From Cetorhinus maximus (Eukaryota), in assembly GCF_964194155.1 (NCBI RefSeq), contig NC_135901.1, positions 27,962,001 to 28,026,000 of the forward strand: a DNA stretch of 64,000 nt, written 5' to 3'. The notes under the pieces are model-generated. The model worked only from the letters and a program-made list of their open reading frames with translations. It did not search any database and was not told the DNA's origin. This document shows positions 9,701-57,900 of the stretch, in pieces. Position numbers and translations under genes: made by a program. The stretch's first letter is position 1, and every line of letters begins with the position of its first letter.

Positions 9701-9890
9701 TGAGAAAGGAATAATTGGCAATCTTGGTGTGCGAGGCTCCTTGGGGATGAGTGACCATAATGTGATAGAATTCTTCATCAAGATGGAGAGTGATGTAGTT
9801 GATTCTGAGACTAGGGTCCTGAATCTTAATAAAGGAAACCACAATGGTATGAGGCGCAAGTTGGCTATGATGGATTGGGAAACGTTAAAT
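6756..9890 (+). mobile_element. CR1 LINE 5' part: ORF1 (coiled-coil plus SGNH/GDSL esterase) and ORF2 AP endonuclease, interrupted by a nested insertion
   Basis: NAIVIGDSIVRGID...CCLPGARVKDV...VVVHIATND, resuming at 8641 with DEVLKADYRELG...VVISGLLPVP; EN motifs CLNARSI, GITETW, GSFNLH. Confidence 0.85.
7294..8640 (+). mobile_element. 5'-truncated CR1 (RT domain plus 3' tail) nested in ORF1 of the host CR1
   Basis: HGFMKGKSCLTNLL, DFQKAFDKVPH, KFADDTK, VRPHLEYCVQF and tail CCTTCTCCTGCTCCTAGTTTCT. Confidence 0.85.
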
Positions 9891-10099
9891 GGATGAGCTC
9901 AGTCAGTCTCATACTCTCGCCTCTGAGTCTGAAGGTTATGGGTTCAAATCCCCACTCCAGAGACTCGAGTCCCCCATAATCCAGGGATGGCACTCTTTCA
10001 GTCTTCAGCTGCCAGGTTCCTAAACTCTGGAATTCCCTCCCTTAACCCCTCCACTTCTCTCTCCTTCTTTTAGACTCTGCTTAAAACCTACTTTTTCTT

Positions 10100-10530
10100 C
10101 TCTCACATCAAGGTCTCGATAAACTGTGTCCCCAAAACAAAGCTGATTTATTTGACATTTACCCAGAATATTAACCTCCAGCCCAGTTACAGGGGTTATT
10201 AAAATCAACAGAAACAAATACCAACTGTCAGAATGAACATGGTTCAGTCCTGGCTGTGATTAGCAGCAGCAATAACAGCAGAATCCAGCCCTTGGAGTGA
10301 ACAATGGACTCACTGGTGTGTCAGGAGCTGGGATGAGAGAGTGAATCCGTCCCACACTTGGAACATTTAATCAGCCTCTCGCCAGCCTGAACCCACTGCT
10401 GGGCCAGTAGACTGGATGACTGAGTGACTCCATTCCCACATACGGAGCAGGTGAACGACCTCTCCGCGGTGTGAGCTCACACATATGTAATCGAGCTGGA
10501 TGAGGAAGTGAATCCCTTTCTTTCTCCTAC
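10100..10530 (-). pseudogene. Decayed ZNF remnant B (2-3 eroded fingers plus family 3' UTR), divergent partner of gene C
   Basis: [29 protein letters not shown]; family 3'-UTR block at 10225-10290; homologs at 51640-52075 and 63265-63665. Confidence 0.7.
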
Positions 10531-10669
10531 AATCTGACCCACATCGTCATGACCTGCACCATGGGTAGGTCAAGGAGGCAGATCCAGAATCCACCCCAGC
10601 CTGAATGTGGATCGAGCCCCGTGCTCTTGGCACCAATCTGATCCGCACCCACCATCCAGGTGATTGAGC

Positions 10670-10771
10670 CGACTAGCCCCCATCCCCCACAAGGAATGTG
10701 AGTCGACCAGCCCCCATCCCCCACAAGGGATGTGAGTCGACCAGTCCCCATCCCCCACAAGGGATGTGAGT
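10670..10771 (+). repeat. 34-bp tandem repeat x3
   Basis: CGACCAGCCCCCATCCCCCACAAGGGATGTGAGT; single copy in the paralog near 52213. Confidence 0.85.
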
Positions 10772-11237
10772 TGCTATGGCAACATACACGGTTACACACT
10801 ATGGATAGTGATGGTCACAGCTCCAATTTCTTTCCACCATGTGGCTGAACAGAAATCTCTCCCAATCTTACAGCCTACCATTGGTGTGTGTTTGAAGGCT
10901 TTACAAGTTGATGCTAAACCTATTTGGCTGCATCATGAAGACACTTTCCTCGACCATCAAGTCCTGTACTGGAACTTGAACCGGTAGCTTCAGACTCAGA
11001 GGACACTATCCACTGCTCCACAAGACCTGCTCCGTTACCCAGGAGTTTGGAGACTGGGCTCAAGATGAGTAATGGCAGCCGCAGCTCCCACAATCCCGCG
11101 CGCTGAGGAAACCGCTCTCTGCGCCGTGCGGACGGGTGACCCGCGACTGCGCATGTCTGAGGGAGAGGGGAAGGTACGCATGTGCGGGAGGGAGCCCGTC
11201 CCTTTCCTTCAGGCCAGGAGTTGGCCAATCCGCAGTA

Positions 11238-11427
11238 GCTTTTTGTTTTTATATCTGGGTTCACCCCCCACCCCCTTCCCACCTTAAACCAGCTTATATT
11301 TCACCCCTCTCCTAATATTACTCAGTTCTGTTGAAGGGTCATGAGGACTCGAAACGTCAACTCTTTTCTTCTCCGCCGATGCTGCCAGACCTGCTGAGTT
11401 TTTCCAGGTAATTCTGTTTTTGTTTTA
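11238..11427 (+). mobile_element. Penelope terminal-repeat fragment inside the gene C promoter
   Basis: Reverse complement of the tails of the GIY-YIG-bearing copies at 21545 and 32286; absent from paralog near 52980. Confidence 0.8.
11324..11362 (+). ncRNA. Minimal type I hammerhead-ribozyme-like motif (variant core CUGUUGA)
   Basis: AGTT-CTGTTGA-A-GGGTC-ATGAG-GACTC-GAAAC-GTC-AACT: stem I, stem II, GAAA box, palindromic ACGT stem III, GUC site. Confidence 0.6.
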
Positions 11428-11865
11428 GCCAATGGGATTCATTGGAGGACCGGAAGGACTCTGCTCCTCCAGACAATCAAAGCGCAGGATTTGTTTGAAT
11501 GACGATTGAGCTTCACTCGGACGAAAACTTCCTCCTGTGTCCAACATCTGTGAGTAAAACACTTTCTTTTCTCCCCCTTTCCATTTCTTTTCTCATTCTG
11601 GGGGGAAATTGTTGACTTGCAGGAACTGAAGGGAAAGGAAGTGAATCCAGGGAGGGTGCAGACTCTGGAAAGGTTGGCCCAGGTCTCTCTCTCTCTCTCT
11701 CTTAAAGACATTGGCATCCTTTGCTCCCTCAGCTTGACACATTTATTTGTCTGGCTAAAAGGATGGTCTCTTTCTGAATGTTCACAATTAAAGGGGTGAT
11801 TTCCCCAGGATATGGCTGACATTTAAGGGGACAGGAAATTAATATAGGACAGAGATATGTCTGGT
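11428..11865 (+). promoter_or_regulatory. Conserved ZNF 5' module of gene C (exon 1 ends 11549; micro-exon 11623-11672)
   Basis: TCT|GTGAGT donor, 73-nt pyrimidine-rich intron, TTGCAG| acceptor, AAG|GTTGG donor. Confidence 0.75.
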
Positions 11866-12781
11866 ATTGTAATATGGTACATATTAGACTTGATATTTAT
11901 GGTTCAGGAATAAAGTACATTTATTATTATTTCTAGTCTTTTAATATATGTAGGTGTGTACGTATTTAATATATTTTTGGCTGTGTCTTCAAGTTCATTT
12001 ATTATTTCTAGTCTTGTAATATAGTACAGGAGCTACCTTATATATTTCCAGCCTTACCTTCATTACAACACAGAAAGAGTCCATTTGGAAACTCAAGTCC
12101 AAGATCGTGACCACGCGCTAAATAAATAAAGTTCTTCCTCGCATTCCCCCTGTATCTCTCACCAGTAAATATACTTGTATGAGAATTTTCATTTTCACAG
12201 GAGTCAGTGAGCATGCGTTTTTTGATCAGCATGAATCGGCACCTTCAGGAGAATTGGGAGGGTGCACATTCGGTGCAGCAGAGTAAGAACGGAGGGAGAG
12301 TGTGTGGGATACAGATTGACAGCTTTTGGGGAATGAGAGAGGAAAGAATTCTCCATACAAAGTAGAATTGTTGTTTCTGAATTTCTGTCCTGTACTGACA
12401 GTGATGAATTTTGTAAACACCTTTTACAGAAGGGGATTTGCAGACAGAAATCTCAATGTAAACATCACATCAAGATCTGAGAGAGCAACCCATTTCATCA
12501 GGACCTGAATATCACCAGCCTTTGAATCCAGAAGGAGAAATGTTTGTCTGCTCTGTCAGCCTCAATCAGTTTTAAACGTCTGTGTGACTGGAAAAGCACC
12601 AAGACACACACACCCGAGTGAGAATGTTTCCAGTGCACTGACTGTGAAAAGGGCTTTCACCAGTTACACAGACTAAAAAAAAATCACCATTCACAGTGAG
12701 GAGAGACATTGTACATGTTCTGTGCATGGACGAGGCTTCAACTGACCGTTGGACCTGGAGAGACACAAAGACAGCTGCACC

Positions 12782-13372
12782 ATGGAGAAACCATGGAAAT
12801 GTGGGGACTGTGGGAAGGGATTCAGATGCCCATCTGAGCTGGAAATTCATAGACGCAGTCACACTGGGGAGAGGCCGTTCACCTGCTCTGTGGGTGGAAA
12901 GGGTTTCAGTCATTTATCCAACATAATGTCGCACAAACTAGTTCACACCGGTGAGAGATGGTTCACCTGCTCTGAGTGTGGGAAGAAATTCAGATCCCCA
13001 TCTAAGCTGAAGATTCACCGATGCACTCACACCGGGGAGAGGCCATTCACCTGCTTTGAGTGTGGGAAGGGATTCAGTCAGTTATCAAACCTGCAGACAC
13101 ACCGGCGAGTTCACACTGGGGAGAGGCCATTCACCTGTTCTGCGTGTGGGAAGGGATTCAGTGATTCATCTGGCCTGCGGACAAATCAGCGAGTTCTCAC
13201 TGGGGAGAGGCCGTACACCTGCTCTGAGTGTGAGAAGGGATTCAGAGATTCATCCAGCCTGCTGACTCACCAGCGAGTTCACACAGAGGAAAGGCCGTTC
13301 ATCTGTCCTGTGTGCGGGAAGGGCTTCAATCAGTCAAGCAACCTCCTGCGACACCAGCGAGTTCAAAAATGA
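12782..13372 (+). CDS. C2H2 ZNF gene C, 196 aa, 7 finger units (about 4 with all ligands)
   Basis: ACCATGG Kozak, open frame, TGERP linkers; branch point TACTGAC and acceptor TTTTACAG at 12428-12429. Confidence 0.8.
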   Translation: MEKPWKCGDCGKGFRCPSELEIHRRSHTGERPFTCSVGGKGFSHLSNIMSHKLVHTGERWFTCSECGKKFRSPSKLKIHRCTHTGERPFTCFECGKGFSQLSNLQTHRRVHTGERPFTCSACGKGFSDSSGLRTNQRVLTGERPYTCSECEKGFRDSSSLLTHQRVHTEERPFICPVCGKGFNQSSNLLRHQRVQK

Positions 13373-13639
13373 TTACAGGAGTTGGATTCTGCTGTTATTG
13401 CTGCTGTTATTCACATCCAGGACTGAACCATGTTCATTCTGACACTTGGCAAAGTGGGAGGGTCGATGGGTTTCTTTCCGCTGGTCTGGCCGATCTCACG
13501 ACTTTGCTTCCAGTGGGCTGATGCTCTTTGAGCCTGGGAGTGCACATTTCCACTGAAATGATCCACAAAAGCTGATGAAGTACATTTATTTTACCCTAGA
13601 TAGTAAGTAATGATTTTCTTACGACTGGAGGTAAATCTA

Positions 13640-14730
13640 AAAGAAGTACATTTGTCTCTGTTCCATTGAGTCTACAGCACTGGGCCAGGCCAGTTGGCTC
13701 AATTGGTCTCTGTCAGTATTTATGCTCCACATGAGCCTCCACCCACCCCTCTTCTCCCCCCATCAGCACATCCTTCTATTCCTTTCTCCCTCATGTATGT
13801 ATCTAGCTTCCCCTTAAATGTATTCATGCGATTCACCTCAACCACTCACTGTGGTAGCAAGTTCCACATTCTCACCACTCACTGGGTAAAGAGGTTTCTC
13901 ATGAAATCCCTATTGGTTTATTGATCCCCTTCATCATCTTAAAGACTTCCGTCAGGTCACCCTTCAGTCTTCTCTTTTGTAGAGAAAAGCAGCCGCAGCC
14001 TTTCCTGAGGGTTAAATGCTCTCAGTTCTGGAATTATTCTTATGAATCTTTGTTGCCCCTTCTCCAGTGCCTCTATTTCATTTTTCTAAACGGAGATGAC
14101 AAATATTGACAGTACTCCCAGTGTAGGCTAACCATGGTTCGAAACAAGTTGAACATAACCTCCCTGCTTTTCAATTCTATCCCTCTAGAATGGAACCTAT
14201 ATCTGGGCCCCATACTTTTGGAAAGATGTGAAGTTCTTAGAGAGGGTGCAGAGAAGATTTACGAAAATGGCACCAGAGGTGAGGGACTTCAGTTATTTGG
14301 AGAGATTGCAGCAGCTTCAAATGTTCTCTTTTGATCATTGAGTCATCAGGGAAGAAAATGGGGTCATTCTGTCTTTCGAGTCCATGATAGCTCTATATAG
14401 AGCAAACCAGTCAGTCCCATTGCTCCGTGGTATCCCCATAGCCTGGCAAGTTTATTTCCCTGTAGTGCCCATCCAATTTCATTTCAATTTCGCTCATCTC
14501 CTCTGTTTCCACCACACTCAAAGGCAGCGAGTTCCAGGACATTACCACTCGCTGTGTAAAAATGTTCCTCCTCACATCCCCCTGCATCTCCTGCCCAAAA
14601 CCCGAAATCTCTGTCCCCCTCATCCTTGTACCATCAGCGAATGTCTGCCTTATTTAAACCTGTCATAATTTTGTACACCTCTATCAAATCTCCCCTCAAC
14701 CTCCTTTGCTCCAAGGAGAACAACCCCAGT
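13640..14730. mobile_element. Patchwork of decayed CR1 3' fragments (mostly minus strand)
   Basis: RRNIFTQRVVMSWNSLP and related motifs; similar patchwork at 19600-19980, 24830-25640 and 55200-56295. Confidence 0.65.
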
Positions 14731-20443: not shown

Positions 20444-21205
20444 GGTGTGGATGTCCTTGTGTCTCTCTTTTTCGATGATCAGTTGAAGCCGCACCCACAA
20501 ACAGAACACATGTACGGTCTCTCCGCTCTGTGAATAGTGCGATATTTTTCAGTCTGTGTAACTGGTTAAAACTGTTTCCACAGTAAGTGAACGGGAACAC
20601 TCTCACTCGGGTGTGTGTGTCTTGATGTTATTTCTGTCACAAGGATGTTTAAAATCTTCTGAAGCAAACAGAACTGACAAAATTTTCTCCTAGATTCAAG
20701 GCTGCTGATAGTCAAGTCCTGCTGAATCGAGTCACTCTGTCACGTTGTCTGGTATCTGTCTGTAAATCATCTGCTTCCGATATCCTGCAACAGTTATTTA
20801 CAAAAGTCATCACTGTCAATGCATGGCAGAAATTCAGAACAGACAATTCTAGTTTCCTGGAACAAATCTTTCCTCTCTCATACCCCAAAATCTGTAAATC
20901 TCGGTCCCACGCACTTTCCCTCCATTCGCAATCTGCTGGATTTATATGCACACTCCCAATTCTCCTGAAGGTGTTGTTCATGCTGATCGACAGATCCATG
21001 CTATACCGCTTCCTATCCAGAACACAGGGATCTGAAATCATCATGCAGGCTGAAAGAAACAGAAATGTTCACTCATTCATGCTCATCGACAGATCCAGGC
21101 TCTCTGCCTCCTGTCCTGGACACAATACACCAGAAAATGCAGTCTGCAAGCCATATATATATATGTATATCTATATGGCTGGACTAAATATGTTTACAAC
21201 ATAAT

Positions 21206-21540
21206 GGATTTACTTCCATTCCCTTCAGTTCCTGCAAGTCAACAATTTGCCCCCAGAATGAGAAAAGAAATGGAAAGGGGGAGAAAAGAAAGTGTTTTAC
21301 TCACAGATGTTGGACACAGGAGGAAGTTTTAGTCTGAAGCTCATTCTCCAACTTCCGCATTGTGACGTCCACAATGGAACCCTGCCTGAATCAGCCAATT
21401 GGAATCACTGCTCCGTGGTGATGTCCTCGGGTTCCAGTCTGTAGGCCAGGTGCGTGGACACGGGAGCCCCGCCCCCACCCATTGTTACCCCTCCACCTCC
21501 CCCTCCTCGAGCCAAGGTTTCCAGGCAACCGGCTGACGGC
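21206..21540 (-). promoter_or_regulatory. Truncated 5' module of gene D plus CpG-rich divergent promoter core
   Basis: Donor retained, proximal CCAAT deleted; 21360-21540 is homologous to 32084-32267 (TGACGT, CCAAT, GC box). Confidence 0.6.
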
Positions 21541-21544
21541 AACT

Positions 21545-22378
21545 CAAAAACAGAAACAGAAATACCTGGAAAAACTCAGCAGGTCTGGCAACATCGGCAG
21601 AGAAGAGCACAGTTGACGTTTCGAGTCTTCATGACCCTTCAACAGAACTAAGTAAAAATAGGAAAGGGGTGAAATATAAGCTGGTTTAAGGGTGGGGGGG
21701 TGGGGTTGTTGGGACAAGAAGCCAGTAATAGGTGGAGATAACCAAAAGATGTCACAGACAAAAGGACAAAGAGGTGTTGAAGGTGGTGATATTATCTAAA
21801 GGAATGTGCTAATTAAGAGTAGAAAGCAGGACAAACAAGGTACAGATAGCTCTAGTGGGGGTGGGGTGGGGTGAAGGAATACTCAAAAGGCTAAAAGATA
21901 GAGATAAACAATGGGTGGAAATACATTTAAAAATAATGGAAATAGGTGGGATAAGAAAAATCTATATAAATTATTGGAAAAAAGAGAGAGGAAGGGGAAG
22001 AAACGGAAAGGGGGTGGGGATGGAGGAGAGAGTTCATGATCTAAAATTGTTGAACTAAATATTCAGTCCGGAAGGTTGTAAAGTGCCTAGTCGGAAGATG
22101 AGGTGCTGTTCCTCCAGTTTGCTTTGAGCTTCACTGGAACAATTCAGCAAGCCAAGGACAGACATGTGGGCATGAGAGCAGGGTGGAGTGTTGAAATGGC
22201 AAGCGACAGGGAGGTCTGGGTAATGCTTGCGGACAGACCGAAGGTGTTCTGCAAAGCGGTCACCCAGTCTGCGTTTGGTCTCTCCAATGTAGAGGAAACC
22301 ACATTGGGAGCAACGAATGCATTAGACTAAGTTGAGGGAAGTGCAAGTGAAATGCTGCTTCACTTGAAAGGAGTGTTT
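21545..22378 (-). mobile_element. Penelope-like element 3' part (GIY-YIG endonuclease plus tail with hammerhead-like motif at 21611-21649)
   Basis: FQVKQHFTC...LYIGETKRRLGDRFAEHLRSV...LEEQHLIFRLGTLQPSGLNI with internal stops. Confidence 0.85.
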
Positions 22379-22710
22379 GTCCAACATCTGTGAGTAAAAC
22401 ACTTTCTTTTCTCCCCCTTTCCATTTCTTTTCTCATTCTGGGGGCAAATTGTTGACTTGCAGGAACTGAAGGGAAAGGAAGTGAATCCAGGGAGGGTGCA
22501 GATTCTGGAAAGGTTGGCCCAGGTCTCTCTCTCTCTCTCTCTTAAAGACATTGACATCCTTTGCTCCCTCAGCATGACACATTTATTTGTCTGGCGAAAA
22601 GGATGGTCTCTTTCCTAATGTTAACAATTAAAGGGGTGGTTTTCCCAAGAGATGGCTGACATTTAAGGGGACAGTAAATTAACATAGAACAGAGATATTT
22701 CTAGTGTTGT
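22379..22710 (+). promoter_or_regulatory. 5' module of gene E lacking its promoter and most of exon 1
   Basis: Penelope sequence abuts TCCAACATCT|GTGAGT (donor 22390). Confidence 0.7.
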
Positions 22711-31469: not shown

Positions 31470-32285
31470 ACACTAGGCATATATCTGTCCTATGTTAATT
31501 TATTGTCCTTTAAATGTCAGCCATCTCCTGGGGAAACCACCCCTTTAATTGTGAACATTAGGAAAGAGACCATCCTTTTAGCCAGACAAATAAATGTGTC
31601 AAGCTGAGGGAGCAAAGGATGTCAATGTCTTTAAGGGAGAGAGAGGGAGAGAGAGACCTGGGCCAACCTTTCCAGAGTCTGCACCTTCCCTGGATTCACT
31701 TCCTTTCCCTTCAGTTCCTGCAAGTCAACAATTTCCTCCCCAGAATGAGAAAAGAAATGGAAAGGGGGAGAAAAGAAAGTGTTTTACTCACAAATGTTGG
31801 ACACAGGAGGACGTTTTAGTTTGTGTGAAGCTCAATCTTCATTCACACAAAGTCCGCGCTCTGATTGGCTGGAGGACCAGAGTCCTTCCGGTCCTCCAAA
31901 TCTCCTCATTTGTCATCCCCTGTATGAAAGCAATGAGGAAGCGGAGCCCGAGCCCACGTGGGGTTGGGAGAGACTTTGACCGGCAGCCGCGCTGAGCTGT
32001 TGTCCAATCCGCAGTATTTTCCTTCTGGAACCAGTGTTATTGCTCCCAATGGGACAGTGTGTTGGGAACGCCCCTCTCAGTCGTTGTGACGTAGAAAACG
32101 GGACGCTGCATGAATCAGCCAATAGAAATCACTCTGCTCTGCGGTGACGTCATCGGGTTCCAGTCTGCAGGCCAGGCGCGCGGACAGGGGAGCCCCGCCC
32201 CCACTCATAGTTCCCCCTCCCCAACCACCATCTTGAGCCAAGGTTTCCAGGCAACCGGCTGACGGCTACGGCCAGAGCGAGAAGC
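31470..32285. promoter_or_regulatory. 5' module of gene F and CpG-rich bidirectional promoter core
   Basis: CCAAT boxes on both strands, full CRE TGACGTCA at 32145-32152, GC box CCCCGCCCC near 32192. Confidence 0.7.
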
Positions 32286-33107
32286 CAAAACAAAAACAGA
32301 ATTACCTGGAAAAACTCAGCAGGTCTGGCAGCATCGGCGGAGATGAACAAAGTTGACGTTTCGAGTCTCATTACCCTTCAACAGAACTGAGTAAAAATAA
32401 GAGAGGGGTGAAATATAAGCTGGTTTAAGGGGTGGGGGGTGTGGTTGTGGGGACAAGCAAGCAGTGATAGGAGCAGATAACCAAAAGATGTCACAGACAA
32501 AAGAACAAAGAGGTCTTGAAGGTGCTGATATTATCTAAAAGAATGTGCTAATTAAGAATGGATAGCAGGACACGCAAGGCACAGATAGCTCTAGTGGGGG
32601 TGGGGTGAGATAAGACTAAAAGGGCATTAAAGGTATAGATTTAAAAATAATGGAAATAGGTGGGAAAAGAAAAATCTATGTAAATTATTAGAAAAAACAA
32701 AAGGGAAGGGGAAGAAACGGAAAGGGGGTGGGGATGGAGGAGGGAGTTCAAGATCTAAAGTTGTTGAACTCAATATTCAGTCCGGAAGGCTGTAAAGTGC
32801 CTAGTCGGAAGATGAGGTGCTGTTCCTCTGGTTTGCGTTGAGCTTCACTGGAACAATGCAGCAAGCCAAGGACAGACATGTGGGCAAGAGAGCAGGGTGG
32901 AGTGTTAAAATGGCAAGCGACAGGGAGGTCTGGGTCATTCTTGCAGACAGACCGAAGGTGTTCTGCAAAGCGGTCGCCCAGTCTGCGTTTGGTCTCTCCA
33001 ATGTAGAGGAGACTGCATTGGGAGCAACGAATACAGTAGACTAAGTTGGGGGAAATGCAAGTGAAATGCTGCTTCACTTGAAAGGAGTGTTTGGGCCCTT
33101 GGACGGT
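32286..33107 (-). mobile_element. 5'-truncated Penelope-like element with open GIY-YIG C-terminal frame and 11-bp TSD
   Basis: NLVYCIRCSQCSLLYIGETKRRLGDRFAEHLRSV...GLNIEFNNFRS; GAGCGAGAAGC at 32275-32285 and 33108-33118; hammerhead-like motif 32351-32388. Confidence 0.9.
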
Positions 33108-33194
33108 GAGCGAGAAGCTGCTTGGAGAACTTGAGAGAGGGGAAGTTGCGCATGTCCAGTGGAGAGCCCGCCCCTTTCGTTCATGGTGAGGGAT

Positions 33195-33630
33195 TGACCA
33201 ATGGGAAGAGTTGGAGGACTGAAAGGACCCTGGTCCTCCAGCCAATCAGAGCGCGGGCTTTGTGTGAATGAAGATTGAGCCTCACACAAACTAAAACTTC
33301 CTCCTGTGTCCAACATCTGTGAGTAAAACACTTTCTTTTCTCCCCCTTTCCATTTCTTTTCTCATTCTGGGGGGAAATTGTTGACTTGCAGGAACTGAAG
33401 GGAAAGGAAGTGAATCCAGGGAGGGTGCAGACTCTGGAAAGGTTGGCCCAGGTCTCTCTCTCTCTCTCTTAAAGACATTGACATCCTTTGTTCCCTCAGC
33501 TTGACACATTTATTTGTCTGGCTAAAAGGATGGTCTCTTTCCTAATGTTCACCATTAAAGGGGTGATTTCCCCAGGAGATGGCTGACATTTAAGGGGACA
33601 GTAAATTAATATAGGACAGAAATATATCTC
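33195..33630 (+). promoter_or_regulatory. Conserved 5' module of gene G
   Basis: CCAAT at 33198 and 33242, uORF ATGAAGATT...TAA, donor 33319. Confidence 0.75.
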
Positions 33631-34569
33631 ATGTTGTTATATAGAATGCATTAGATATATTATATATGGTTCTGTATTAAAGTGTTTATTATTATTTCTA
33701 GTCTTGTAATATGGTACTAACTACGTGATATATTGCCAGTCATAGAGTCATTATGACACAGAAGGATTCCATTCAGCAACTCAAGTAGATGCCGACTATC
33801 TGCAGAGCAGCAGTCATTGCCTCTCTCTTTCCTCTTTCCCCAGCAAGTTTATATCCTTCATTTTCATTTTGAAATCAATGACCCTCTCCACTTCCAACAT
33901 CTTCATGGGCAGCGAGATCCAGGTCATCACCACTGTCTGTCGAAATTCAGTTATCCCTCACAGCCCCATGTATCTCTAATTATGTAATATGGTTCTGTAT
34001 TTTACACACATTTTAGTGCAGTACTGTTGGGTGTATTTTAGATACTGCACAGTGAGACTGGAGAGGAGTGTATGTGAGGATGTACAGTTTTTGCGGAACA
34101 AGAATGAAACAAGTGCACCATAGAAACTAGAATTGTCTGCTCTGAATTTCTATCCTGTACTGACAGTGATGATTTTTGTAAACTCCCTTTACAGGACATT
34201 AGAAGGGGAAGATTTGCAGACATAAACCTGAAACCAAATGTCACATCAAGATCTGACAGAGTCACTCGATTCATGAGACCTGACTATCACTGGATTTTGA
34301 ATCTGGAAGGAGAAATGTTTCTCTGTTCTGTTTGCTTCAAGAGATTTTAAATATCAGTGTGACTGGAAAAGTACCGACTCACACACAAGTGAAACTGTTG
34401 CAATGCACTGACTGTGAAAAGAGCTTTAACCAGTCAAAGCTGAAAAAACAGCCTGAAAAAACACCACACCACTCACAATGAGGAGAGACTGTGCGCATGT
34501 TCTGTGGAGGGGGGGGGGCGAGGCTTCAACTAATCATTGAACCTGGAGAGACACAAGGCCACCTGCAGC

Positions 34570-34959
34570 ATGGAAAAACAGTGGAAATGTGGTGACTGTG
34601 GAAAGGGATTCAAATACCCTTCACAGCTGGAAATTCATTGGCACGGTCACACTGAGGAGAGGCCGTTCATTTGCTCTGTTTGTAGGAAGGGATTCAGTCG
34701 GTTATCATCCTTGGAGTCACACCAACGAGTTCACACCGGGGAGAAGCCGTTCACCTGCTCTGAATGTGGCAAGGGCTTCACTCAGTTATCCCACCTGCAG
34801 GGACACCAGCGAGTTCACACCGGGGAGAGACCATTCACCTGTTCCGAGTGTGGGAAGGGATTCACTCAGTCATCCCACCTGCAGCGACACCAAGTTCACA
34901 AGTGGTTCCAGGGGTTGGATTCTGCTGTTATTGCTACTGTTAATTACATCCAGAATTGA
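34570..34959 (+). CDS. C2H2 ZNF gene G, 129 aa, 4 finger units, family stop lost
   Basis: [10 protein letters not shown]; last finger lacks one codon; TGG at the family TGA position gives read-through into the 3' UTR; acceptor 34193-34194. Confidence 0.7.
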
Positions 34960-35164
34960 ACCATGTTCATTCTGACAGTTGGTGAAGTGGGAGTGTCGGA
35001 GGGTTTCTTTCTGCTGGACTGGCCAGTCTCACGACTTTGCTTCCAGTGGCTGATGCTCTTTGAGCCTGGGAGTGCACATTACCACTGAAATGATCCACAA
35101 AAGCTGATGAAAATAGATTTGTTTTATTCTAGATAATAAGTAGTTTTTCCTTACCACTACAGGT

Positions 35165-40912: not shown

Positions 40913-41759
40913 GGCAGGGACTGCTCACCAGGTATGGTCATCGTTATCTCTCTCCAGCGCCTCCTTCAGGACAGGGACTGCTCACCAGGTACAGTCACCG
41001 TTACCGCTCTCCAGCGCCTCCTTCAGGGCAGGGACAGGGACTGCTCACCAGGTACAATCATTGTTACCTCTCTCCAGAATCTCCTTCAGGACAGGGACAG
41101 GGACTGCTCACTAGGTACGGTCATCTTTACCCCTCTCCAGAGTCTCCTTCAGGACAGGGACAGGGACTGCTCACCAGGTACGGTCATCATTACCTCTCTC
41201 CAGCGCCTCCTTCAGGACAGGGACAGGTACTGCTCACCAGGTACGGTCATCACTACCTCTCTCCAGCGCCTCCTTCAGGGCAGAGACAGGGACTGCTCAC
41301 CAGGTATGGTCATCATTACCTCTCTCCAGCGCCTCCTTCAGGACAGGGACTGCTCACCAGGTACGGTCATCGTTACCTCTCTCCAGCGCCTCCTTCAGGG
41401 CAGAGACAGGGACTGCTCACCAGGTACAGTCATTGTTACCTCTCTCCAGAGCCTGCTTCAGGACAGGGACAGGGACTGCTCACCAGGTACAGTCATCTTT
41501 ACCTCTCTACAGAGTTTCATTCAGGACAGGGACAGGGACTGCTCACCAGGTACGGTCATCGTCACCTCTCTCCACAGCCTCCTTCAGGGCAGGGACTGCT
41601 CACCAGATACAGTCATCGTTACCTCTTTCCAGCGCCTCCTTCAGGACAGGGACAGGGAGCTCACCAGGTATGGTCATCATTACCTCTCTCCAGCGCCTCC
41701 TTCAGGACAGGGACTGCTCACCAGGTACGGTCATCATAACCTCTTTCCAGAGCCTCCTT
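40913..41759. repeat. 57/63-bp minisatellite, 14 units, inside an LTR-element leader
   Basis: (GACAGG)1-2 GACTGCTCACCAGGTACGGTCATCGTTACCTCTCTCCAGCGCCTCCTTCAG. Confidence 0.9.
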
Positions 41760-45004: not shown

Positions 45005-45720
45005 ACTAGGCATATCTCTGTCTTGTATTAATTTACTGTCCCTTTAAATGTCAGCCATCACCTGGGGAAACCACCCCTTTAACTGTGAACATGAAGAAAG
45101 TGACCATCATTTTAGCCAGACAAATAAATATGTCAAGCTGAGGAAGCAAAGGATGTTAATGTCTTTAAGAGAGAGAGAGAGACCTGGGCCAACATTTCCA
45201 GAGTCTGCACCCTCCCTGGATTCACTTCCTTACCCTTCAGTTCCTGCAAGTCAACAATTTGCCCCCAGAATGAGAAAAGAAATGGAAAGGGGGAGAAAAG
45301 AAAGTTTTACTCACAGATGTTGTACACAGGAGGAAATTTTAGTCTGTGAAACTCAATCTTCAATCACACAAAGTCCACGCTCTGACTGGTTGGAGGACAA
45401 GTGTCCTTCCGGTCCTCCAACTATTCCCATTGGTTAATCTCTTGCCTGAAGACAATGGGGAGGCGGAAGGGAAGGGGTGGGGCGGGGTGGTGGGATCGCC
45501 CCCCAGATGCGCCGATTCCCCCTCCCTTGGACATTCGCAGTCCCGGGCCTCCCGTCCACGCGGCGGATAGAGCGGTTTCCCCACCGCGGAGGATTCTGGG
45601 AGCTGCAGCCCCTATTACTCAGCCGGAGCCCAGTCTCCAAACTCCTAGGATTGGGATGGAAAGTGGGGTTGGGGGGGGCGCAGTGACCCCGCCCTGACAC
45701 AAAGTACATGTGGGTAGTTA
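45005..45720 (-). promoter_or_regulatory. 5' module of gene H and CpG-rich upstream core
   Basis: Donor 45314; GC-rich block homologous to 52730-52980 and 62240-62500. Confidence 0.7.
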
Positions 45721-48460: not shown

Positions 48461-51436
48461 TCGCCAGCTGCAGATCCTGGAAGTCCCGCTTTCGGAGTTG
48501 AAGCGGCGGCTGGGAAGACTGGAGCATCCGCGAGGTGGAGAGTATCATGGATAGAAGGTATAGAGAGGGGAATGGCCTCTCAGGGGTAAGCAGCAACAGG
48601 CAAATTCGTTACATCACGGTTGGCTCTGCTGCACAGGGGAGGAGTAAAAAGTGTGGGAATGCAATAGTTATAGGGGATTCAATTGTAAGGGGAATAGATA
48701 GGCGTTTCTGTGGCCGCAAATGAGACTCCAGGATGGTATGTTGCCTCCCTGGTGCAAGGGTCAAGGATGTCTCAGAGCGGCTACAGGGCATTCTGAATGG
48801 GGAGGATGAACAGCCAGTGGTTGTGGTACACATTGCTACAAACGACAGAGGTATAATTCTTGAGTCCATTATGAAATATTTAATAGCTGCGCACGTGGAA
48901 AACAGTGGCAGAATCGGACAGAGTCAGCATGGATTTATGAAAGGGAAATCATGCTTGACAAATCTACTGGAATTTTTCTAGGATGTAACCAGTAGAGTTG
49001 ATGAGGGGGAGCCAGTGGATGTGGTTTACTTGGACTTTCAGAAGGCTTTCGACAAAGTCCCACATAAGAGATTGGCGTGTAAAATTAAAGCGCATGGGAT
49101 TGAGGGTCATGTATTGAGATGGATAGAAAACTGGTTGGCAGACAGGAAACAAAGAGTAGGAATAAACGGGTCTTTTTCCGAATGGCAGGCAGTGATTAGT
49201 GGGGTACCGCAGGGATCGGTGCTGGGACCCCGGTTATTCACAATACATATTAATGATTTAGATGAGGGAATTAAAAGTAATGTCTGCAAATTTGCAGATG
49301 ACACAAAGCTGGGTGAGGGGGTGAGTTGTGAGAAGGATGCAGAGATGCTTCAGTGTGATTTGGACAAGCTGAGTGAGTGGTCAAATGCACGGCAGATGCA
49401 GTATAATGTGGATAAATGTGAGGTTATGCATTTTGGTAGCAAAAATAGGAAGGCAGATTATTATCTGAATGGGAATGTGCAATGAGACCTGGGTGTTCTT
49501 GTACACCAGTCGCTGAAGGTAAGCATACAGGTACAGCAGACGGTAAAGAAGGCAAATGGTATGTTGGCTTTCGTAGCCAGAGGATTCGAGTCCAGGAACA
49601 GGGATGTCTTGCTGCAATTGTATAGGACCTTGGTGAGATCATACCTGGAATATTGTATGCAGTTTTGGTCTCCTTATCTGAGGAAGGATGTTCTTTCTAT
49701 AGAGGGAGTGCAGCAAAGGTTTACCCGACTGATTCCTGGGATGGCGGGGTTGACATATCAGGAGAGATTGAATCGTTTAAGATTATATTCACTGGAGTTC
49801 AGAAGAATGAGGGGGGATCTCATAGAAACCTATAAAATTCTAACAGGGCTAGACAGGGTAGCTGCAGGAAGGATGTTCCCAATGGTGGGGGAGTCCAGAA
49901 CCAGGGGTCACAGTCTGAGGATATGGGGTAGGCCATTTGGGACTGAGATGAGGAGAAATTTCTTCACCCAGAGAGTGGTGAGCCTGTGGAATTCGTTACC
50001 ACAGAAAGTAGTTGAGACCAAAACATTGTATGTTTTTAAGGAGTTAGATATAGCCCTTGGGGTGAAAGTGATCAAAGGGTATGGGGAGAAAGCGGGAGCA
50101 GGCTATTCAGTTGGATGATCAGCCATGATCATAATGAATGGTGGAGCGGGCTCGAGGGGCTGAATAGCCTTTTCCTGCTCCTCGTTTCGATATAAAAAAA
50201 TGGATGAGGTCCTCAAAGCAGAATATAGGGAATTAGGAAGTAAGTTGAAAAGTTGGACCTCAAAGGCAGTGATCTCAGGATTACTACCAGTGCTCCATCC
50301 TCATCAGAGTAGGAATAGCAGGATATATCAGATGAATATGTGGCTGAAGGGATGGTGCAATGGGGGAGGGTTTCAGATTCCTGGGACATTGGGACCGGTT
50401 CTGGGCAATGTGGGACCAGTACAAACTGGCCGGGTTACACCTGGGCAGGACTGGGACTGATGTCCTAGGGGGAGCATTTGCCAGAGTGGCTGGGGAGGGT
50501 TTAAGCTAAAATGGTAGGGGGATCCTATGCAAGGAGTCAGGGGAGGGGGAATCAAGGACATGAACAAAAGACAGAAAGGGAAATTAGAAAAGTGATAGGC
50601 AGAGAAATCAAGGGCAAGAATCAAACAGGGCCTCAGTGAAAAATAGTGGGAATGGGACAAGTAATGTTAAAAAGACAAGCCTTAAGGCTTTGTGCCTTAA
50701 TGCGAGGAGCATTTGCAATAAAGTGGATGAATTAAACACGCAAATAGATGTAAACAGGTATGATATAGTCGGGATTACGGAGACATGGCTGCAAGGTGAC
50801 CAGGAATGGGAACTGAACATCCAGGGGTATTCAGTATTTAGGAAGGACAGACAAAAAGGAAAAGGTGGTGGATTTGCATTGCTGGTTAAAGAGGAAATTA
50901 ATTAATAGTAAAGAAAGATATTAGCTCCAACGATGTGGAACCTGTATGGGTGGAGCTGAGAAACACTAAGGGTCAAAAAACGTTAGTGGGGGTTGTTTCT
51001 AAACCCCCAAACTATAGTGGTGATGTTGGGAATGGCATTAAACAGGAAATTAGAGACGCATGCAAGAAAGGAACATCTATAATTATGGGTGGCTTTAATC
51101 TGCATATAGATTGGGCAAATCAAATTAGTAACAATACCGTAGAGGAAGAATTCCTGGAGTGTATACGGGATGGTTTCCTGGGCCAATACGTTGAGGAACC
51201 AATGAGAGAACAGGCTAACCTGGACTAGGTATTTTGTAATGAGAAAGGAATAATTGGCAATTGAGGTGTGCGAGGCTCCTTGGGGATGAGCGACCATAAT
51301 ATGATAGAATTCTTCATCAAGATGGAGAGTGATGTAGTTGATTCTGAGACTAGGGTCCTGAATCTGAATAAAGGAAACTACAATGCTATGAGGCGCAAGT
51401 TGGCTATGATGGATTGGGAAACGTTTCTTAAAGGGA
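48461..51436 (+). mobile_element. Nested CR1 composite, copy 2 (RT insert about 48853-50190)
   Basis: Esterase ORF1, RT (YLDFQKAFDKV, GVPQGSVLGP, FADDTK), ORF1 remainder, then EN. Confidence 0.85.
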
Positions 51437-51639: not shown

Positions 51640-52075
51640 TTCTCTCACATCAAGGTCTTGATAAGCTGTGACCCCAAAACAAAGCTGATTTATTTGACAT
51701 TTACCCAGAATATTAATCTCCAGCCCAGTTACAGGGGTTATTAAAATCAACAGAAACAAACCCCAACTGTCAGAATGAACATGGTTCAGTCCTGGTTGTG
51801 ATTAGCAGCAGCAATAATAGCAGAATCCAGCCCCTGGAGTGAACAATGGACTCACTGGTGTGTCAGGAGCTGGGATGAGCGAGTGAATCCGTTCCCACAC
51901 TCGGAACATTTAATCAGCCTCTCGCCTGTCTGAACCCACTGCTGGGCCAGCAGGCTGGCTGACTGAGTGACTCCATTCCCACATATGGAGCAGGTGAATG
52001 GCCTCTCCCCAGTGTGAGCTCACATATATGTAACCGAGCTGGATGAGGAAGTGAATCCCTTTCCTTCTCCTTCAA
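51640..52075 (-). pseudogene. Decayed ZNF remnant B'
   Basis: [18 protein letters not shown]; family 3' UTR at 51765-51835. Confidence 0.7.
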
Positions 52076-52729
52076 TCTGACCCACGCCATCATGACCTGC
52101 ATCATGGGTAGAACAAGGAGGCAGGTCCCGAATCCACCCCAGCCTGAATGTGGATCGAGCCGCATGCTATTGGCACCAATCTGGTCCGCACTCACCATCC
52201 AGGTGACTGAGCCGACCAGCCCCCATCCACCATAAGGAACAAGAGAAACATACACTGTTATGCGCAATTTACAGTCTGGAGCTATGGATAGTGATGGTCG
52301 CAGCTCCAATTTCTTTCCATCGTGTGGCTGAGCCGAAATCTGTCCCACTCTTACCACCTGTCATTGATGTGTATTGGAAGGTTTTACAAGTTGATGCTAA
52401 ACCTGTTTGGCTGCATCGTGAAGACACTTTCCTTGGCCATCAAGTCCTGGACTGGGACTTGAACCGGGAGCTTCAGGCTCAGCGGCAGGGACACTACCCA
52501 CTGCTCCACAAGACCTACCCCGGCACCCATTGCCCTCCCCAATATGTCACCAGCTGTCTATATCTTTACAGAAAGAGAGTCATATTCTACCCGAAACATT
52601 AACTCCGTTTCTCTCTTCACAGATGATTCCTGACCTGTTGAGTATCTCCAGCACTTTCTGTTTCTATTTCAGTCGAAGTGTTTGCACTCGAAACACCTGT
52701 TTTGCTAAGGGGGCGTCACAATCAAACCC

Positions 52730-53420
52730 AGTGACTACCCACATGTACTTTGTTTCCGGGCGGGGTCACTGCGCTCCCCACCCCACTTTCCATCCCAGTC
52801 CCAGGATTTTGGAGACTGGGCTCCGGATGAGTAATGGCGGCCGCAGCTCCCACAGTCCCCCGCGGTGGGGAAGCCGCTCTATCCACCGCGCGGGCGGGCG
52901 ACCCGGGGCTGCGCATGTCCGAGGTGGAGGGTAAGTTGCCCATGTGCGGGGGAGAGCCCGCCCCTTCCCTTCATGCTGAGGGCTCCACCAATGGGAAAAG
53001 TTGGTGGACCGGATGAACTCTGGCCTTCCAGCCAATGAGAGCGTGGGCTTTGTGTGAATGAAGATTGAGCTTCACACAGACTAAATCTTCTTCCTGTGTC
53101 CAACATCTGTGAGTAAAACACTTTCTTTTCTCCCCCTTTCCATTTCTTTTCTCATTCTGGGGGTAACTTGTTGAATTGCAGGAACTGAAGGGGAAGGAAG
53201 TGAATCCAGGGAGGGTGCAGACTCTGGAAAGGTTGGCCCAGGTCTCTCTCTCTCTCTTAAAGACATTGACATTATTTGCTCCCTCAGATTGACACATTTA
53301 ATTGTCTGGCTAAAAGGATGGTCTCTTTCCTAATGCTCACAATTAAAGGGGTGGTTTCCCCAGGAGATGGCTGACATTTAAGGGGGCAGGAAATTAATAT
53401 AGGACAGAGATATGTCTGGT
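52730..53420 (+). promoter_or_regulatory. CpG-rich core and 5' module of gene I
   Basis: CCAAT near 52988 and 53032, GC box, donor 53109. Confidence 0.75.
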
Positions 53421-54339
53421 GTTGTTATATGGTACATATTAGACTTGATATTTATGGTTCAGGAATAAAGTACATTTATTATTATTTCTAGTCTTTTAAT
53501 ATATGTAGGTACGTACATATTCAATATATTTTTGGCTGTGTCTTCAAGTTCATTTATTATTTCTAGTCTTGTAATATAGTACTGGAGCTGCCTTATATAT
53601 TTCCAGCCTTACATTCATTACAACACAGAAAGAGCCCATTTGGAAACTCAAGTCCAAGATCGTGACCACGCGCTAAATAAATAAAGTTCTTCCTCGCATT
53701 CCCCCTGTATCTCTCACCAGTAAATATACTTCTATGAGGATTTTCAAGTCATGAACAGGAATCAGTGACCATTCATTTTTTGATCAGCATGAATCGGCAC
53801 CTTCAGGAGAATTGGGAGGGTGCACATTCGGTGCAGCAGAGTAAGAACGGAGGGAGAGTGTGTGGGATACAGATTGACAGCTTTTGGGAAATGAGAGAGG
53901 AAAGAATTCTCCATACAAAGTAGAATTGTTGTTTCTGAATTTCTGTCCTGTACTGACAGTGATGAATTTTGTAAACACCTTTTACAGAAGGGGATTTGCA
54001 GACAGAAATCTCAATGTAAACATCACATCAAGATCTAAGAGAGCAACCCATTTCATCAGGACCTGAATATCACCAGCCTTTGAATCCAGAAGGAGAAATG
54101 TTTGTCTGCTCTGTCAGCCTCAATCAGTTTTAAACGTCTGTGTGACTGGAAAAGCACCAAGACACACACACCCGAGTGAGAATGTTTCCAGTGCACTGAC
54201 TGTGAAAAGGGCTTTCACCAGTTACACAGACTAAAAAAAAATCACCATTCACAGTGAGGAGAGACATTGTACATGTTCTGTGCATGGACGAGGCTTCAAC
54301 TGACCGTTGGACCTGGAGAGACACAAAGACAGCTGCACC

Positions 54340-54930
54340 ATGGAGAAACCATGGAAATGTGGGGACTGTGGGAAGGGATTCAGATGCCCATCTGAGCTGG
54401 AAATTCATAGACGCAGTCACACTGGGGAGAGGCCGTTCACCTGCTCTGTGGGTGGAAAGGGTTTCAGTCATTTATCCAACATAATGTCGCACAAACTAGT
54501 TCACACCGGTGAGAGATGGTTCACCTGCTCTGAGTGTGGGAAGAAATTCAGATCCCCATCTAAGCTGAAGATTCACCGATGCACTCACACCGGGGAGAGG
54601 CCATTCACCTGCTTTGAGTGTGGGAAGGGATTCAGTCAGTTATCAAACCTGCAGACACACCGGCGAGTTCACACTGGGGAGAGGCCATTCACCTGTTCTG
54701 CGTGTGGGAAGGGATTCAGTGATTCATCTGGCCTGCGGACAAATCAGCGAGTTCTCACTGGGGAGAGGCCGTACACCTGCTCTGAGTGTGAGAAGGGATT
54801 CAGAGATTCATGCAGCCTGCTGACTCACCAGCGAGTTCACACAGGGGAAAGGCCGTTCATCTGTCCTGTGTGCGGGAAGGGCTTCAATCAGTCAAGCAAC
54901 CTCCTGCGACACCAGCGAGTTCAAAAATGA
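54340..54930 (+). CDS. C2H2 ZNF gene I, 196 aa, near-identical to gene C
   Basis: Differs from C at only two residues (DSSS/DSCS, TEERP/TGERP); acceptor 53986-53987. Confidence 0.8.
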   Translation: MEKPWKCGDCGKGFRCPSELEIHRRSHTGERPFTCSVGGKGFSHLSNIMSHKLVHTGERWFTCSECGKKFRSPSKLKIHRCTHTGERPFTCFECGKGFSQLSNLQTHRRVHTGERPFTCSACGKGFSDSSGLRTNQRVLTGERPYTCSECEKGFRDSCSLLTHQRVHTGERPFICPVCGKGFNQSSNLLRHQRVQK

Positions 54931-57900
54931 TTACAGGAGTTGGATTCTGCTGTTATTGCTGCTGTTATTCACATCCAGGACTGAACCATGTTCATTCTGA
55001 CACTTGGCAAAGTGGGAGGGTCGATGGGTTTCTTTCCGCTGGTCTGGCCGATCTCACGACTTTGCTTCCAGTGGGCTGATGCTCTTTGAGCCTGGGAGTG
55101 CACATTTCCACTGAAATGATCCACAAAAGCTGATGAAGTACATTTATTTTACCCTAGATAGTAAGTAATGATTTTCTTACGACTGGAGGTAAATCTAAAA
55201 GAAGTACATTTGTCTCTGTTCCATTGAGTCTACAGCACTGGGCCAGGCCAGTTGGCTCAATTGGTCTCTGTCAGTATTTATGCTCCACATGAGCCTCCAC
55301 CCACCCCTCTTCTCCCCCCATCAGCACATCCTTCTATTCCTTTCTCCCTCATGTATGTATCTAGCTTCCCCTTAAATGTATTCATGCGATTCACCTCAAC
55401 CACTCACTGTGGTAGCAAGTTCCACATTCTCACCACTTGCTGGGTAAAGAGGTTTCTCATGAAATCCCTATTGGTTTATTGATCCCCTTCACCATCTTTA
55501 AGACTTCCATCAGGTCACCCTTCAGCCTTCTCTTTTCTAGAGAAAAGCAGCCGCAGCCTTTCCTGATGGTTAAATGCTCTCAGTTCTGGAATTATTCTTG
55601 TGAATCTTTGTTGCCCCATCTCCAGTGCCCTTATTTCCTTTTTCTAAATGGAGATGACAAATGTTGACAGGACTCCCAGTGTAGTCTAACCATGGCTTGA
55701 AACAAGTTGAACATAACCTCCCTGCTTTTCAATTCTATCCCTCTAGAATGGAACCTATATCTGGGCCCCACACTTTTGGAGAGATGTGAAGTTCTTAGAG
55801 AGGGAGCAGAGGAGATTTACGAGAATGGCACCAGAGATGAGGGACTTCAGTTATTTGGAGAGATTGCAGCAGCTACAATTGTCCTCTTTAGATTATTGAA
55901 TCATCAGGGAAGAAAATGGGGCCATTCCGTCTATCGAGTCCATGATAGCTCTATATAGAGCAAACCAGTCAGTCCCATTGCTTCGTGGTATCCCCGTAGT
56001 CTGGCAGCTTTATTTCCCTGTAATGCCCATCCAATTTCACTCATCTCCTCTGTTTCCACCACACCTAAAGGCAGCGAGTTCCAGGACATTACCACTCGCT
56101 GTGTAAAAATGTACTTCCTCACATCCCCCTGCATCTCCTGCCCAAAACCTTAAATCTGTGTCCCCCTCGTCCTTGTACCATCAGCGAATGGGAACAGCTT
56201 TTCTTTGTCCACCTTCTCTAACCCTGTCATAATCTTGTACACCTCTATCAAATCTCCCCTCAACCTCCTTTGCTCCAAGGAGAACAACCCCAGTTTGACA
56301 TCAAAAATAAAATATGTTCATGCCTGACATCAAATGTGAATGTTGAATTTCTGTTTTGAAAATATTATGAATATATTGTACTGGACAGTAAAGGTATTGG
56401 AATAACTCACCTTGGGTATTGCTCAGTGGAATATGTCAACCTGGTAACCACCTACATTCTAGTGAAAGGCAAGAAAGTGGAGATCAGATGAATAATTTGA
56501 CATCTTATCTTGGAAATATTTGTTTCCTTTCACAATGATTTTAAAAAAAAGAAAACCACATTTGACAGCCTGGCCAACACCTGAAATATCAGGACCATAA
56601 CAGGGGGAGATAAGCAAAGGCAGACACCCACTTTGATCTTTTGATAAGCACACCTGAAAGTTCAGAATATGTGGAGTGACATTGGGATACCGGTGTGAGT
56701 GTGCAGATGTGATTTGTTACATGTGAAGACAATAGCACGTGTAAATTCATGGCGAAGTGGACTGAAGACTGGGTCCCAAACCATACACAGCTACTTGACA
56801 AACAGCCTGTCATTAAATGGTTAATGTGGCCAGGGGAATGAGACAACATTTTGACATCATCAAGGCACTGACACACACTCCAGAGAGAAACTGACTTTAA
56901 AACAGTCAGAATAGAATTAAACACACTGGTCATGGTCAAAAAATAAGTAAAATTGAAGTAACCGAGACAACATTTGGGTTGGGACAATTAAGGGCTTGGG
57001 AGAAATAATACTGAGTGAGAACTGTCCACAAGTCAGACAGGAGTAAGGAGAGAGCTGGAGAATCTTTTACATCCATGATTGATCTGTTGCTTGAAGCGTA
57101 TGTCCTTATGTACTAGTAACCTAGAACTCACGGTGCTCCTTCAGGAGAAAAGATTGAGTAGGTGTTACCCCAGGTGGGGCCAGAACAGAACTGGAAAATA
57201 ACGGAGTGAAATTGAGTGAGGGGTCAGAGAGAGAGTTCCGCTCCCCCTCAGGGTGTGGACTGTAAGAATCCTGGGGGACCCCCTACTTCGGGTTTTCTTG
57301 CTAATTAGTGAACACTAAATTAAAAACTATGACAGGCTGTGCATTGATTTCTAATTTGATTGTTACATTTATCCTGTTTTTATTCCTGTTGTGATTACTC
57401 TCTGAGTAAGGATGGTTGACAGGTGACAGGAAGGGAAATTGTGGTTTGGAATGCTGACTCCCTGTACCGGGGATGGAGTGTGGGAAGCCAATTGTTTGAG
57501 AGTTTGATGTGGTTTGGGCAGGTACAAATGGTTCAATGACAGGTTTTGTAATTGGTCCATTCAAATGTTAGCTCAGCAATGATTGGGTTAAATCAGTCTC
57601 CATAGACTTTGTGATGTAAAAAAGTATCAGAAGGGATTCCCCGAGCACAGAGATTTGTAGAGGTTTTACATATTGCATTGACTGGTGCCATGGCATCTGG
57701 GGCAGAGCAGGGAGCATTTACATGGAGATGGTGCTTCTACCCAGAGTGTAATGGTAATGCTGCTGCACTTTGATACTACTGCTCAGACATGAGCATGTGT
57801 CAGGTCTTATTTATACTAAATAAAATCTAACCACTGTCACCAATATGGGTTATCACTGTGAATCATTTCAGAGTTTGGGAAAAGGGTATAAACGGTTAAT

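Follow-up and report, generated by a model that had tools for sequence, protein, structure and literature searches.

A shared non-coding module at the 5′ ends of clustered C2H2 zinc-finger genes in Cetorhinus maximus

Why should the non-coding 5′ ends of a group of zinc-finger paralogs resemble each other more closely than the fingers that they precede? The question is raised by a 64,000-nucleotide stretch of the Cetorhinus maximus genome, which we call the window, and which holds a tandem cluster of C2H2 zinc-finger genes amid LINE-type fragments. A sequence-only reading of this DNA had proposed either strong selection on a shared regulatory or RNA element, or repeated gene conversion of the 5′ ends. 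Judging from sequence comparisons, we put at roughly 55% the probability that the module acts as a 5′ control cassette common to a very large C2H2 family, held under purifying selection while the rest of each gene diverges.

The module and its nine copies

The module lies upstream of nine finger exons in the window (copies A, B, C, D, E, F, H, I and J), in the same orientation as the exon and 0.9-2.5 kb 5′ of the finger ATG. A BLAST search within the window with 33195-33630 as query found all eight other copies: six near full length at 90-94% identity, one at 22378-22702 over 325 nt (95%) that has no promoter, and one at 21205-21336 over 132 nt (97%). Every copy named in the sequence-only reading, including a partial one near 21206, was recovered in this way.

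The copy under study, F, is on the forward strand (33198-33600), and positions 33319-33600 of it define what we call the core. Copies B (11429-11833), D (22378-22673) and I (52988-53388) share this strand; copies A (3714-4095), E (31504-31912), H (45037-45433), J (61836-62234) and the partial copy C (21205-21336) are on the reverse strand. The module of A has a 21-nt deletion, and its finger ORF has a frameshift and three stops; D has a repeat fragment in place of its promoter and a stop in finger 1; in J, some 340 nt of inserted sequence lie precisely at the 3′ boundary of the core. Copy E, with seven intact fingers, has changes at 3/253 core sites and copy I at 10/254, while H has the most decayed core (15/254) and a finger ORF that is nonetheless open.

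Each of the nine copies encodes between 4 and 12 fingers. The finger-start motif and the repeats seem shark-like. Arrays of 28-residue fingers with TGERP-type linkers in a single last exon identify the genes as C2H2, and Pfam matches the fingers of copy E to PF00096 and PF13465. The four-finger ORF of copy F (34570-34959, forward) is assigned to the family through paralog E and PF00096. It is preceded by the 5′ part of the last exon (34195-34569, forward), a decayed linker and fingers with three consensus stops, which evolves neutrally in all three frames (omega about 1). All copies restart at an ATG downstream of this stop-carrying start of the last exon.

Some further features of the window are recorded here. 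Three short, degenerate finger remnants without a module (10220-10521, 51763-52064 and 63298-63542) lie head-to-head upstream of B, I and J. The copies C/D and E/F form head-to-head pairs with related intervening DNA (21336-22378 and 31912-33198). The fragment that replaces the D promoter is 93% like the repeat upstream of F, which itself has a weak GIY-YIG match (E 0.0005, below the cut-off). A 63-bp minisatellite of 13.8 copies with several long open frames occupies 40915-41759. A 29-bp minisatellite lies in the duplicated pair 6605-6753/47722-48460, with 5 copies in one member and about 25 in the other. A LINE-type reverse transcriptase fragment (PF00078) is found at 48982-50115, with related fragments elsewhere, one of them in the H intron.

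In copy F the module begins with a partly conserved promoter part (33198-33266, forward) with two CCAAT boxes (33198 and 33242); an ETS-like CCGGAA site is present in 3 of the 7 full copies. The names of CCAAT-type and ETS-like factors for these sites are our assumption. Between the CCAAT boxes, at 33210-33240, the majority sequence has a 9-bp inverted repeat (TGGAGGACC / GGTCCTCCA), which is broken in several copies with no compensatory change. Exon 1 (33267-33318, forward, start approximate) ends in a GT donor and contains an ATG uORF of 8 codons that shows no codon constraint. From 33318 to 33373 (forward) follow 56 nt with no substitution in any of the nine copies, comprising the donor, a pyrimidine tract and a G-run. 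This run is longer than random placement of changes would give (P 0.00045), and slippage indels occur in its G-run stretch in 4/9 copies.

The 50-nt micro-exon proposed in the sequence-only reading (33392-33441, forward) has a canonical acceptor in 9/9 copies and a canonical donor in 7/9. The '73-nt intron' said to precede it is a conserved stretch as described, with a length that varies from 52 to 74 nt among copies. Downstream lie a (CT)n tract (33452-33469, forward; 15-23 nt across copies in the alignment) and a conserved intronic block of 133 nt (33468-33600, forward) with TGACA repeats, ATTAAA and a GGGG-N6-CCCC motif; a possible donor at its 3′ end is kept in 4 of 8 copies. The motif GGGGTG(G/A)TTTCCCC, given as common to the copies, is exact in seven of eight and altered in the other. 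An NF-kB reading of this motif and a CTCF-like site beside it presume the usual consensus sequences; both vary among copies and were set aside.

How conserved is the core? With the recent pair B/I excluded, mean pairwise identity is 0.978 in the short 'intron', 0.960 in the 'micro-exon' and 0.936 in the next 133 nt. It is 0.862 in the promoter and exon 1, 0.790 in the 110 nt after the core, 0.799 in the last 150 nt of the intron, 0.765 in the last exon 5′ of the finger ATG, and 0.824 and 0.792 in the first and last fingers. Compared with the consensus, the core has 53/2082 changes (2.5%) and the other homologous non-coding (neutral) blocks have 570/4476 (12.7%); each of the nine copies deviates less from the consensus in its core than in the remaining non-coding blocks of the same copy (Fisher P 2e-10 to 0.048). 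The replacement sites of zinc-ligand codons, with 18 changes in 248 codons (2.7%), are indistinguishable from the core by this measure (Fisher P 0.78). Finger framework positions 1-2 diverge by 8.9% and helix positions by 31%, in a comparison of fingers that are not orthologous. Along the module, divergence falls from 10% at the first CCAAT box to zero at 33318-33373, and rises past 33600.

These block identities bear out the claim that the non-coding 5′ module is more conserved than the fingers, and the claim also survives comparison with neighbouring sequence, above which the module stands far. The description 'nearly identical' suits the core; the promoter part is just 86% identical. The rest of the intron and the last exon are more diverged across the family, except in the pair B/I, whose finger exons resemble each other much more closely than their modules do.

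The 250 nt 3′ of the finger stop (e.g. 34906-35155) form a second block of conservation, less pronounced than the first. Among B, D, E, F, I and J the 3′ UTRs reach 84-91% identity, exceeding the 77-80% of the introns of the same copies; in A, C and H the block is interrupted.

Splicing and a candidate reading frame in the leader

We aligned contigs from four sequencing runs to 33120-34570, one of which, X16, is RNA by the tool's guess. In five X16 contigs a joint links 33318-33320 with 34198-34204, and the intervening letters extend exactly to the acceptor at 34194/34195. Exon 1 is thus spliced straight to the last exon, which places the 280-nt core at the beginning of intron 1. Among the joints listed (best 15 of 82 and 12 of 13), none enters the micro-exon (33318-33392). 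In X17, one contig joins 33419 to the last exon and another single contig joins 33598, so internal exits from the core are present in some paralogs. The reading that fits best makes the core the first part of a single intron, about 880 nt long, with a minor or cryptic exon in it; 33392-33441 is probably that exon. The exon map proposed earlier, a short intron followed by a micro-exon, thus gives way to one that is mostly intron, as the five RNA-type contigs bypass the micro-exon.

RNA-type contig depth rises across 33218-33315, a weak sign given that it is the depth of contigs. Several other readings were set aside. A drop of X17 depth after 33560 coincides with a stretch that has no cover and is not read as an RNA end. 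A reading frame through an ATG in exon 1, the micro-exon and the last exon is in the finger register in 4/7 copies, meets a stop at codon 9 in 5/7, and is unconstrained. Long antisense ORFs cross the module, but none of the minus frames has an excess of synonymous changes.

Does the leader encode anything at all? A run of 15 codons at 33275-33322 (forward) has a synonymous excess. Its first codon is TTG in 5/7 copies, CTG in A and CCG in J, and its unspliced frame stops at a TGA inside the donor. Only the rearranged copy C has an ATG, at 21360, which opens a 19-codon ORF in the constrained frame. Synonymous alleles make up 11/17, with 4.9 expected, at a P of 0.0014 that is post hoc, being the best of 45 windows; it becomes about 0.009 when corrected for six exon-frame tests and is non-significant over about 120 window-frame tests. 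In the last 44 nt of exon 1 there are 14 synonymous and 6 replacement changes among 7 copies, at rates of 0.214 and 0.025 per copy (omega about 0.15). The constrained frame is the one that direct splicing sets in register with the fingers. A 9-bp inverted repeat overlaps the signal.

We lean slightly towards a real codon signal, and exon 1 may hold a short putative uORF with no ATG. It can be a uORF at most, because all 7 of 7 copies have stops between it and the finger ATG, 2-9 of them under direct splicing and 3-10 when the micro-exon is included, and because the linker evolves neutrally. The synonymous rate of 0.214 is unlike that of the core (P 4e-9) and resembles that of the neutral blocks (P 0.06), which implies that the sequence adjoining the invariant run is old. 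If the signal is real, sites beside this run date back as far as the gene bodies do, which excludes an overwriting of the region as a whole.

Selection, exchange and other explanations

Purifying selection fits the conserved core better than conversion does. We favour it for the star-shaped variation of the core, its divergence at the level of the zinc ligands and the old synonymous sites of exon 1. The core alleles are singletons in 40 of 45 cases, where a neutral coalescent among donors gives 46%; the excess has a P of 0.049 if the core is treated as one block, 0.001 as three and 0.0004 as five. Copy C retains 70 of the 71 nt of the short intron between non-homologous flanks, and its gene body is the most diverged of all. 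Copy E is the sole copy with no zinc-ligand change (0/28), and its core divergence is joint lowest.

Some observations count against selection. Variable sites in the core (43/254) are almost evenly spread: a uniform model predicts 47 and a free-subset model 33, and the model with a fifth of core sites free is rejected. Such an even spread is what recent homogenisation would leave. Per-copy decay of the core and of the ligands is uncorrelated (rho 0.14, n=9), copy H combines an open ORF with the worst core, and conservation drops off as a gradient. The 2.5% scatter in the core would, under selection, come from copies that have been released; release fails to explain why the broken copies A, D and J likewise have no substitution in the 56-nt run.

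The chief competitor, which we consider unlikely though well ahead of those that follow, is concerted evolution. Breaks near the promoter would be repaired from paralogs, the first 300 nt of the intron would be repeatedly overwritten, and no function other than that of the splice donor would be required. The evenness of the core changes and the smooth gradient with its zero zone suit this account, as does site 33381, which differs in all 6 contigs of a further organism (organism C below) among the matches listed. Promoter-directed recombination where PRDM9 is partial, reported for some cartilaginous fish in the portion of PMC5519329 available to us, would supply a suitable setting. However, the singleton excess rejects a random-donor equilibrium, exon 1 synonymous sites stand at full neutral depth less than 50 nt from the zero zone, and the isolated 130-nt island in copy C is still 99% conserved.

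The pair B/I shows exchange directly. Trees built block by block, a check suggested in the sequence-only reading, are discordant: B and I group with 100% support in the gene body and fall apart in the core and promoter. The duplication is 94-96% identical overall, with 3-5% difference at 9500-10399 and 205/3275 differences (6%) in the 3′ flank. Differences reach 8-21% per 100 aligned nt between B 10400-11500 and I 51950-53060, and number 23/121 in the promoter and exon 1. The core differs at 15/254 sites (5.9%), which is the flank rate and so agrees with conversion, and B and I share 0/254 derived sites there. In contrast, the finger exons differ at 4 positions in about 1,600 nt (99.7% identity, degenerate fingers included), in a tract at 12218-13824 (forward) that matches the I exon at about 53800-55400. 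This near-identity reflects recent conversion or assembly collapse. The whole history is most simply read as the acquisition of a third paralog's promoter, joined within the core, together with a recent finger-exon conversion. The pair is therefore a case of exchange that uses the module with different rather than identical promoters as the outcome. Across the module, site classes are not equally homogenised and shared variants do not follow a coalescent pattern. Of the two causes first proposed, then, both operate, unequally: exchange is seen directly in B/I alone, and selection is the better explanation of the core.

An RNA element was also part of the original proposal. The 133-nt block could be an intron-encoded structured RNA, H/ACA-like with two hairpins and an ACA end, that has multiplied with its host genes. 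Its length (133-136 nt), a conservation that stops at ACA, a single ANANNA hexamer at position 58 and the fold of copy F (z -2.5) all invite the idea, which we regard as improbable. Rfam gives no match at the gathering score and only chance-level matches by E-value (SNORA55, on the opposite strand, scores 14 bits where the cut-off is 45), and a tRNA scan is also empty. No compensatory pairs are seen (0/36, in 8 close sequences with low power), the consensus z is -0.63, and changes do not avoid stems (P 0.27), nor do they in five segments folded on both strands (10/10 with P >0.1). The hexamer is paired in the best fold and opening the boxes by force costs 9 kcal/mol; hence the two hairpins with a single-stranded H box, an ACA 3 nt from the end and covariation that mark H/ACA snoRNAs are not found together here. 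Moreover, the most conserved part sits 5′ of the block. The covariation and Rfam checks that had been proposed for this DNA thus yielded nothing, and the shared RNA element, in the sense of a structured RNA, is unsupported by Rfam, covariation or folding. The intronic blocks of the core carry no codon signal either.

Slightly less probable still is a mobile origin of the module, as a young cassette or transposon that was inserted at the genes' 5′ ends or spread through them in a sweep; the module's star tree with short branches (length 0.196 vs 1.147 for gene bodies) and high apparent copy number might suggest it. Within the window, 9/9 copies lie upstream of a finger exon in the same place and orientation, with no solo copy; 33150-33720 has no terminal repeats; homology continues into the intron at 79%; and the summed depths of the module and the last-exon start are of the same order. 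A match to a young transposon had been named at the outset as something that could overturn the claim; within the window, no transposon anatomy was found.

A local mutation cold spot in open, unmethylated, CpG-free chromatin is the least credible account: the core has 0 CpG, but CpG decay does not explain its contrast because the adjoining 110 nt are also CpG-free yet 79% identical. The 5.9% difference of the B/I core and the neighbouring exon 1 synonymous sites at 21% also speak against a cold spot.

Spread, known counterparts and possible role

How far does the module extend beyond the window? Parts of the stretch occur in 20 of 24 listed sequencing runs, which come from 11 studies and bear three organism and two metagenome labels. 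The contigs across the F intron differ from it at 20/413 letters in organism A and 18/402 in organism B, and to judge from these letters they probably come from relatives and not from the source of the window. At the sites private to F (33220, 33222, 33281, 33289, 33491, 33553 and 33566), organisms A, B and C share the window consensus letter among the matches listed. In the best bins, the depth summed across the module comes to 21,000-66,000, compared with 22-36 for single intron-spanning contigs, and it is of the same order at the last-exon start; this sum is not a copy number, and half of each run was read. As a rough figure, the module probably has hundreds to thousands of copies.

A 19-mer query has no match in viral contigs or in genome contigs, and seven metagenome matches, none of which extends beyond 21 nt, were discarded as chance. 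The run X19, RNA labelled as coral metagenome, contains 0.26 of the module's words, which is not evidence of habitat. A search with the linker peptide gave 1 protein among 14 candidates and no Atlas match. We found no description of the module in searches of the open literature, some of which assumed a shark, and five module motifs are absent from the papers of an open library. The paralog-conserved leader is real, unusually strong and apparently undescribed.

Two well-known systems are partly similar. Ultraconserved elements around the 'poison' exons of splicing-factor genes are near-invariant intron-exon-intron stretches around a minor exon; those are conserved between orthologs of single genes, whereas the module is conserved between paralogs and has its exon in a 5′ leader. 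In the primate gamma-globin pair, gene conversion has left the 5′ part more alike than the 3′ part, with a simple repeat inside the tract. Two adjacent genes are concerned there; the copies here are very numerous, lie in both orientations, vary in a star-shaped manner and have old synonymous sites within the module.

The core may work most like MER57E3, by analogy with which we suggest a putative activating role. In the accounts available from PMC9122532 and PMC12947407, MER57E3 lies in the first introns of primate ZNF genes and drives expression, and its knock-out or CRISPRi lowers the host ZNF. Like the module, it is by these accounts a shared non-coding element just 3′ of the start in many zinc-finger paralogs and is thought to have spread with the genes. 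However, they describe it as a remnant of an LTR that typically lies some 1 kb from the start and also has copies in other places. The core here has its 5′ end at the first donor and exceeds the finger framework in conservation; it has no LTR anatomy, and terminal repeats, target-site duplication and solo copies are all absent within the window.

The organisation also resembles that of FiNZ-ZNF and KRAB-ZNF genes, which are described in the consulted part of PMC10547256 as families of hundreds with a constant 5′ exon and a variable finger exon. The greater variability of the helix positions (31% vs 9% for the framework) is a further likeness. In those genes, by that account, what stays constant is a protein domain joined to the fingers, whereas here constancy is greatest within the intron. 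No 5′ effector domain is in frame with the fingers, given the intervening stops and neutral linker, Pfam shows no KRAB-type family among the matches listed (best 25 of 54), and the micro-exon peptide has no Pfam family. Sharks go unmentioned in the main text of PMC10547256. The passages of PMC8455134 record that cartilaginous fishes have lost KRAB families, and clusters of this kind go undescribed there.

How might the cassette work? A CCAAT-type promoter would start the short exon 1, maybe with a small translated uORF. The core, at about +50 to +330, would be a platform densely packed with binding sites, recognised as DNA or as nascent RNA, and would set transcription and first-intron splicing of all members together while their fingers diversify. 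We modestly favour a proximal element acting at the DNA level over control via the cryptic exon. The core may double as a joint for ectopic exchange of promoters and finger exons, since it is the sole stretch alike in every paralog.

A bolder proposal, which we consider doubtful, is that this lineage has swapped a constant protein domain of the KRAB or FiNZ type for a constant non-coding module, made of a 280-nt intronic element and a non-AUG micro-ORF. One trans-acting signal would then switch the whole finger repertoire, and the same identity would serve as the crossover joint. Nearly every base would be constrained across some thousand paralogs, and the signal could be a protein of the family itself, an RNA-binding protein or a small RNA that reads homology.

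Outside tetrapods and cyprinids, it is an open question how hundreds of fast-evolving ZNF genes are co-activated and how they act without KRAB. The available part of PMC10547256 names both questions for fish. An element common to most of the family would offer one handle on it, and a single guide, morpholino or reporter could probe the whole repertoire. If conversion is instead the cause, the module would clearly exemplify a patch close to the promoter that is homogenised across very many dispersed paralogs. With either cause, the element would help to annotate the 5′ ends of these genes correctly.
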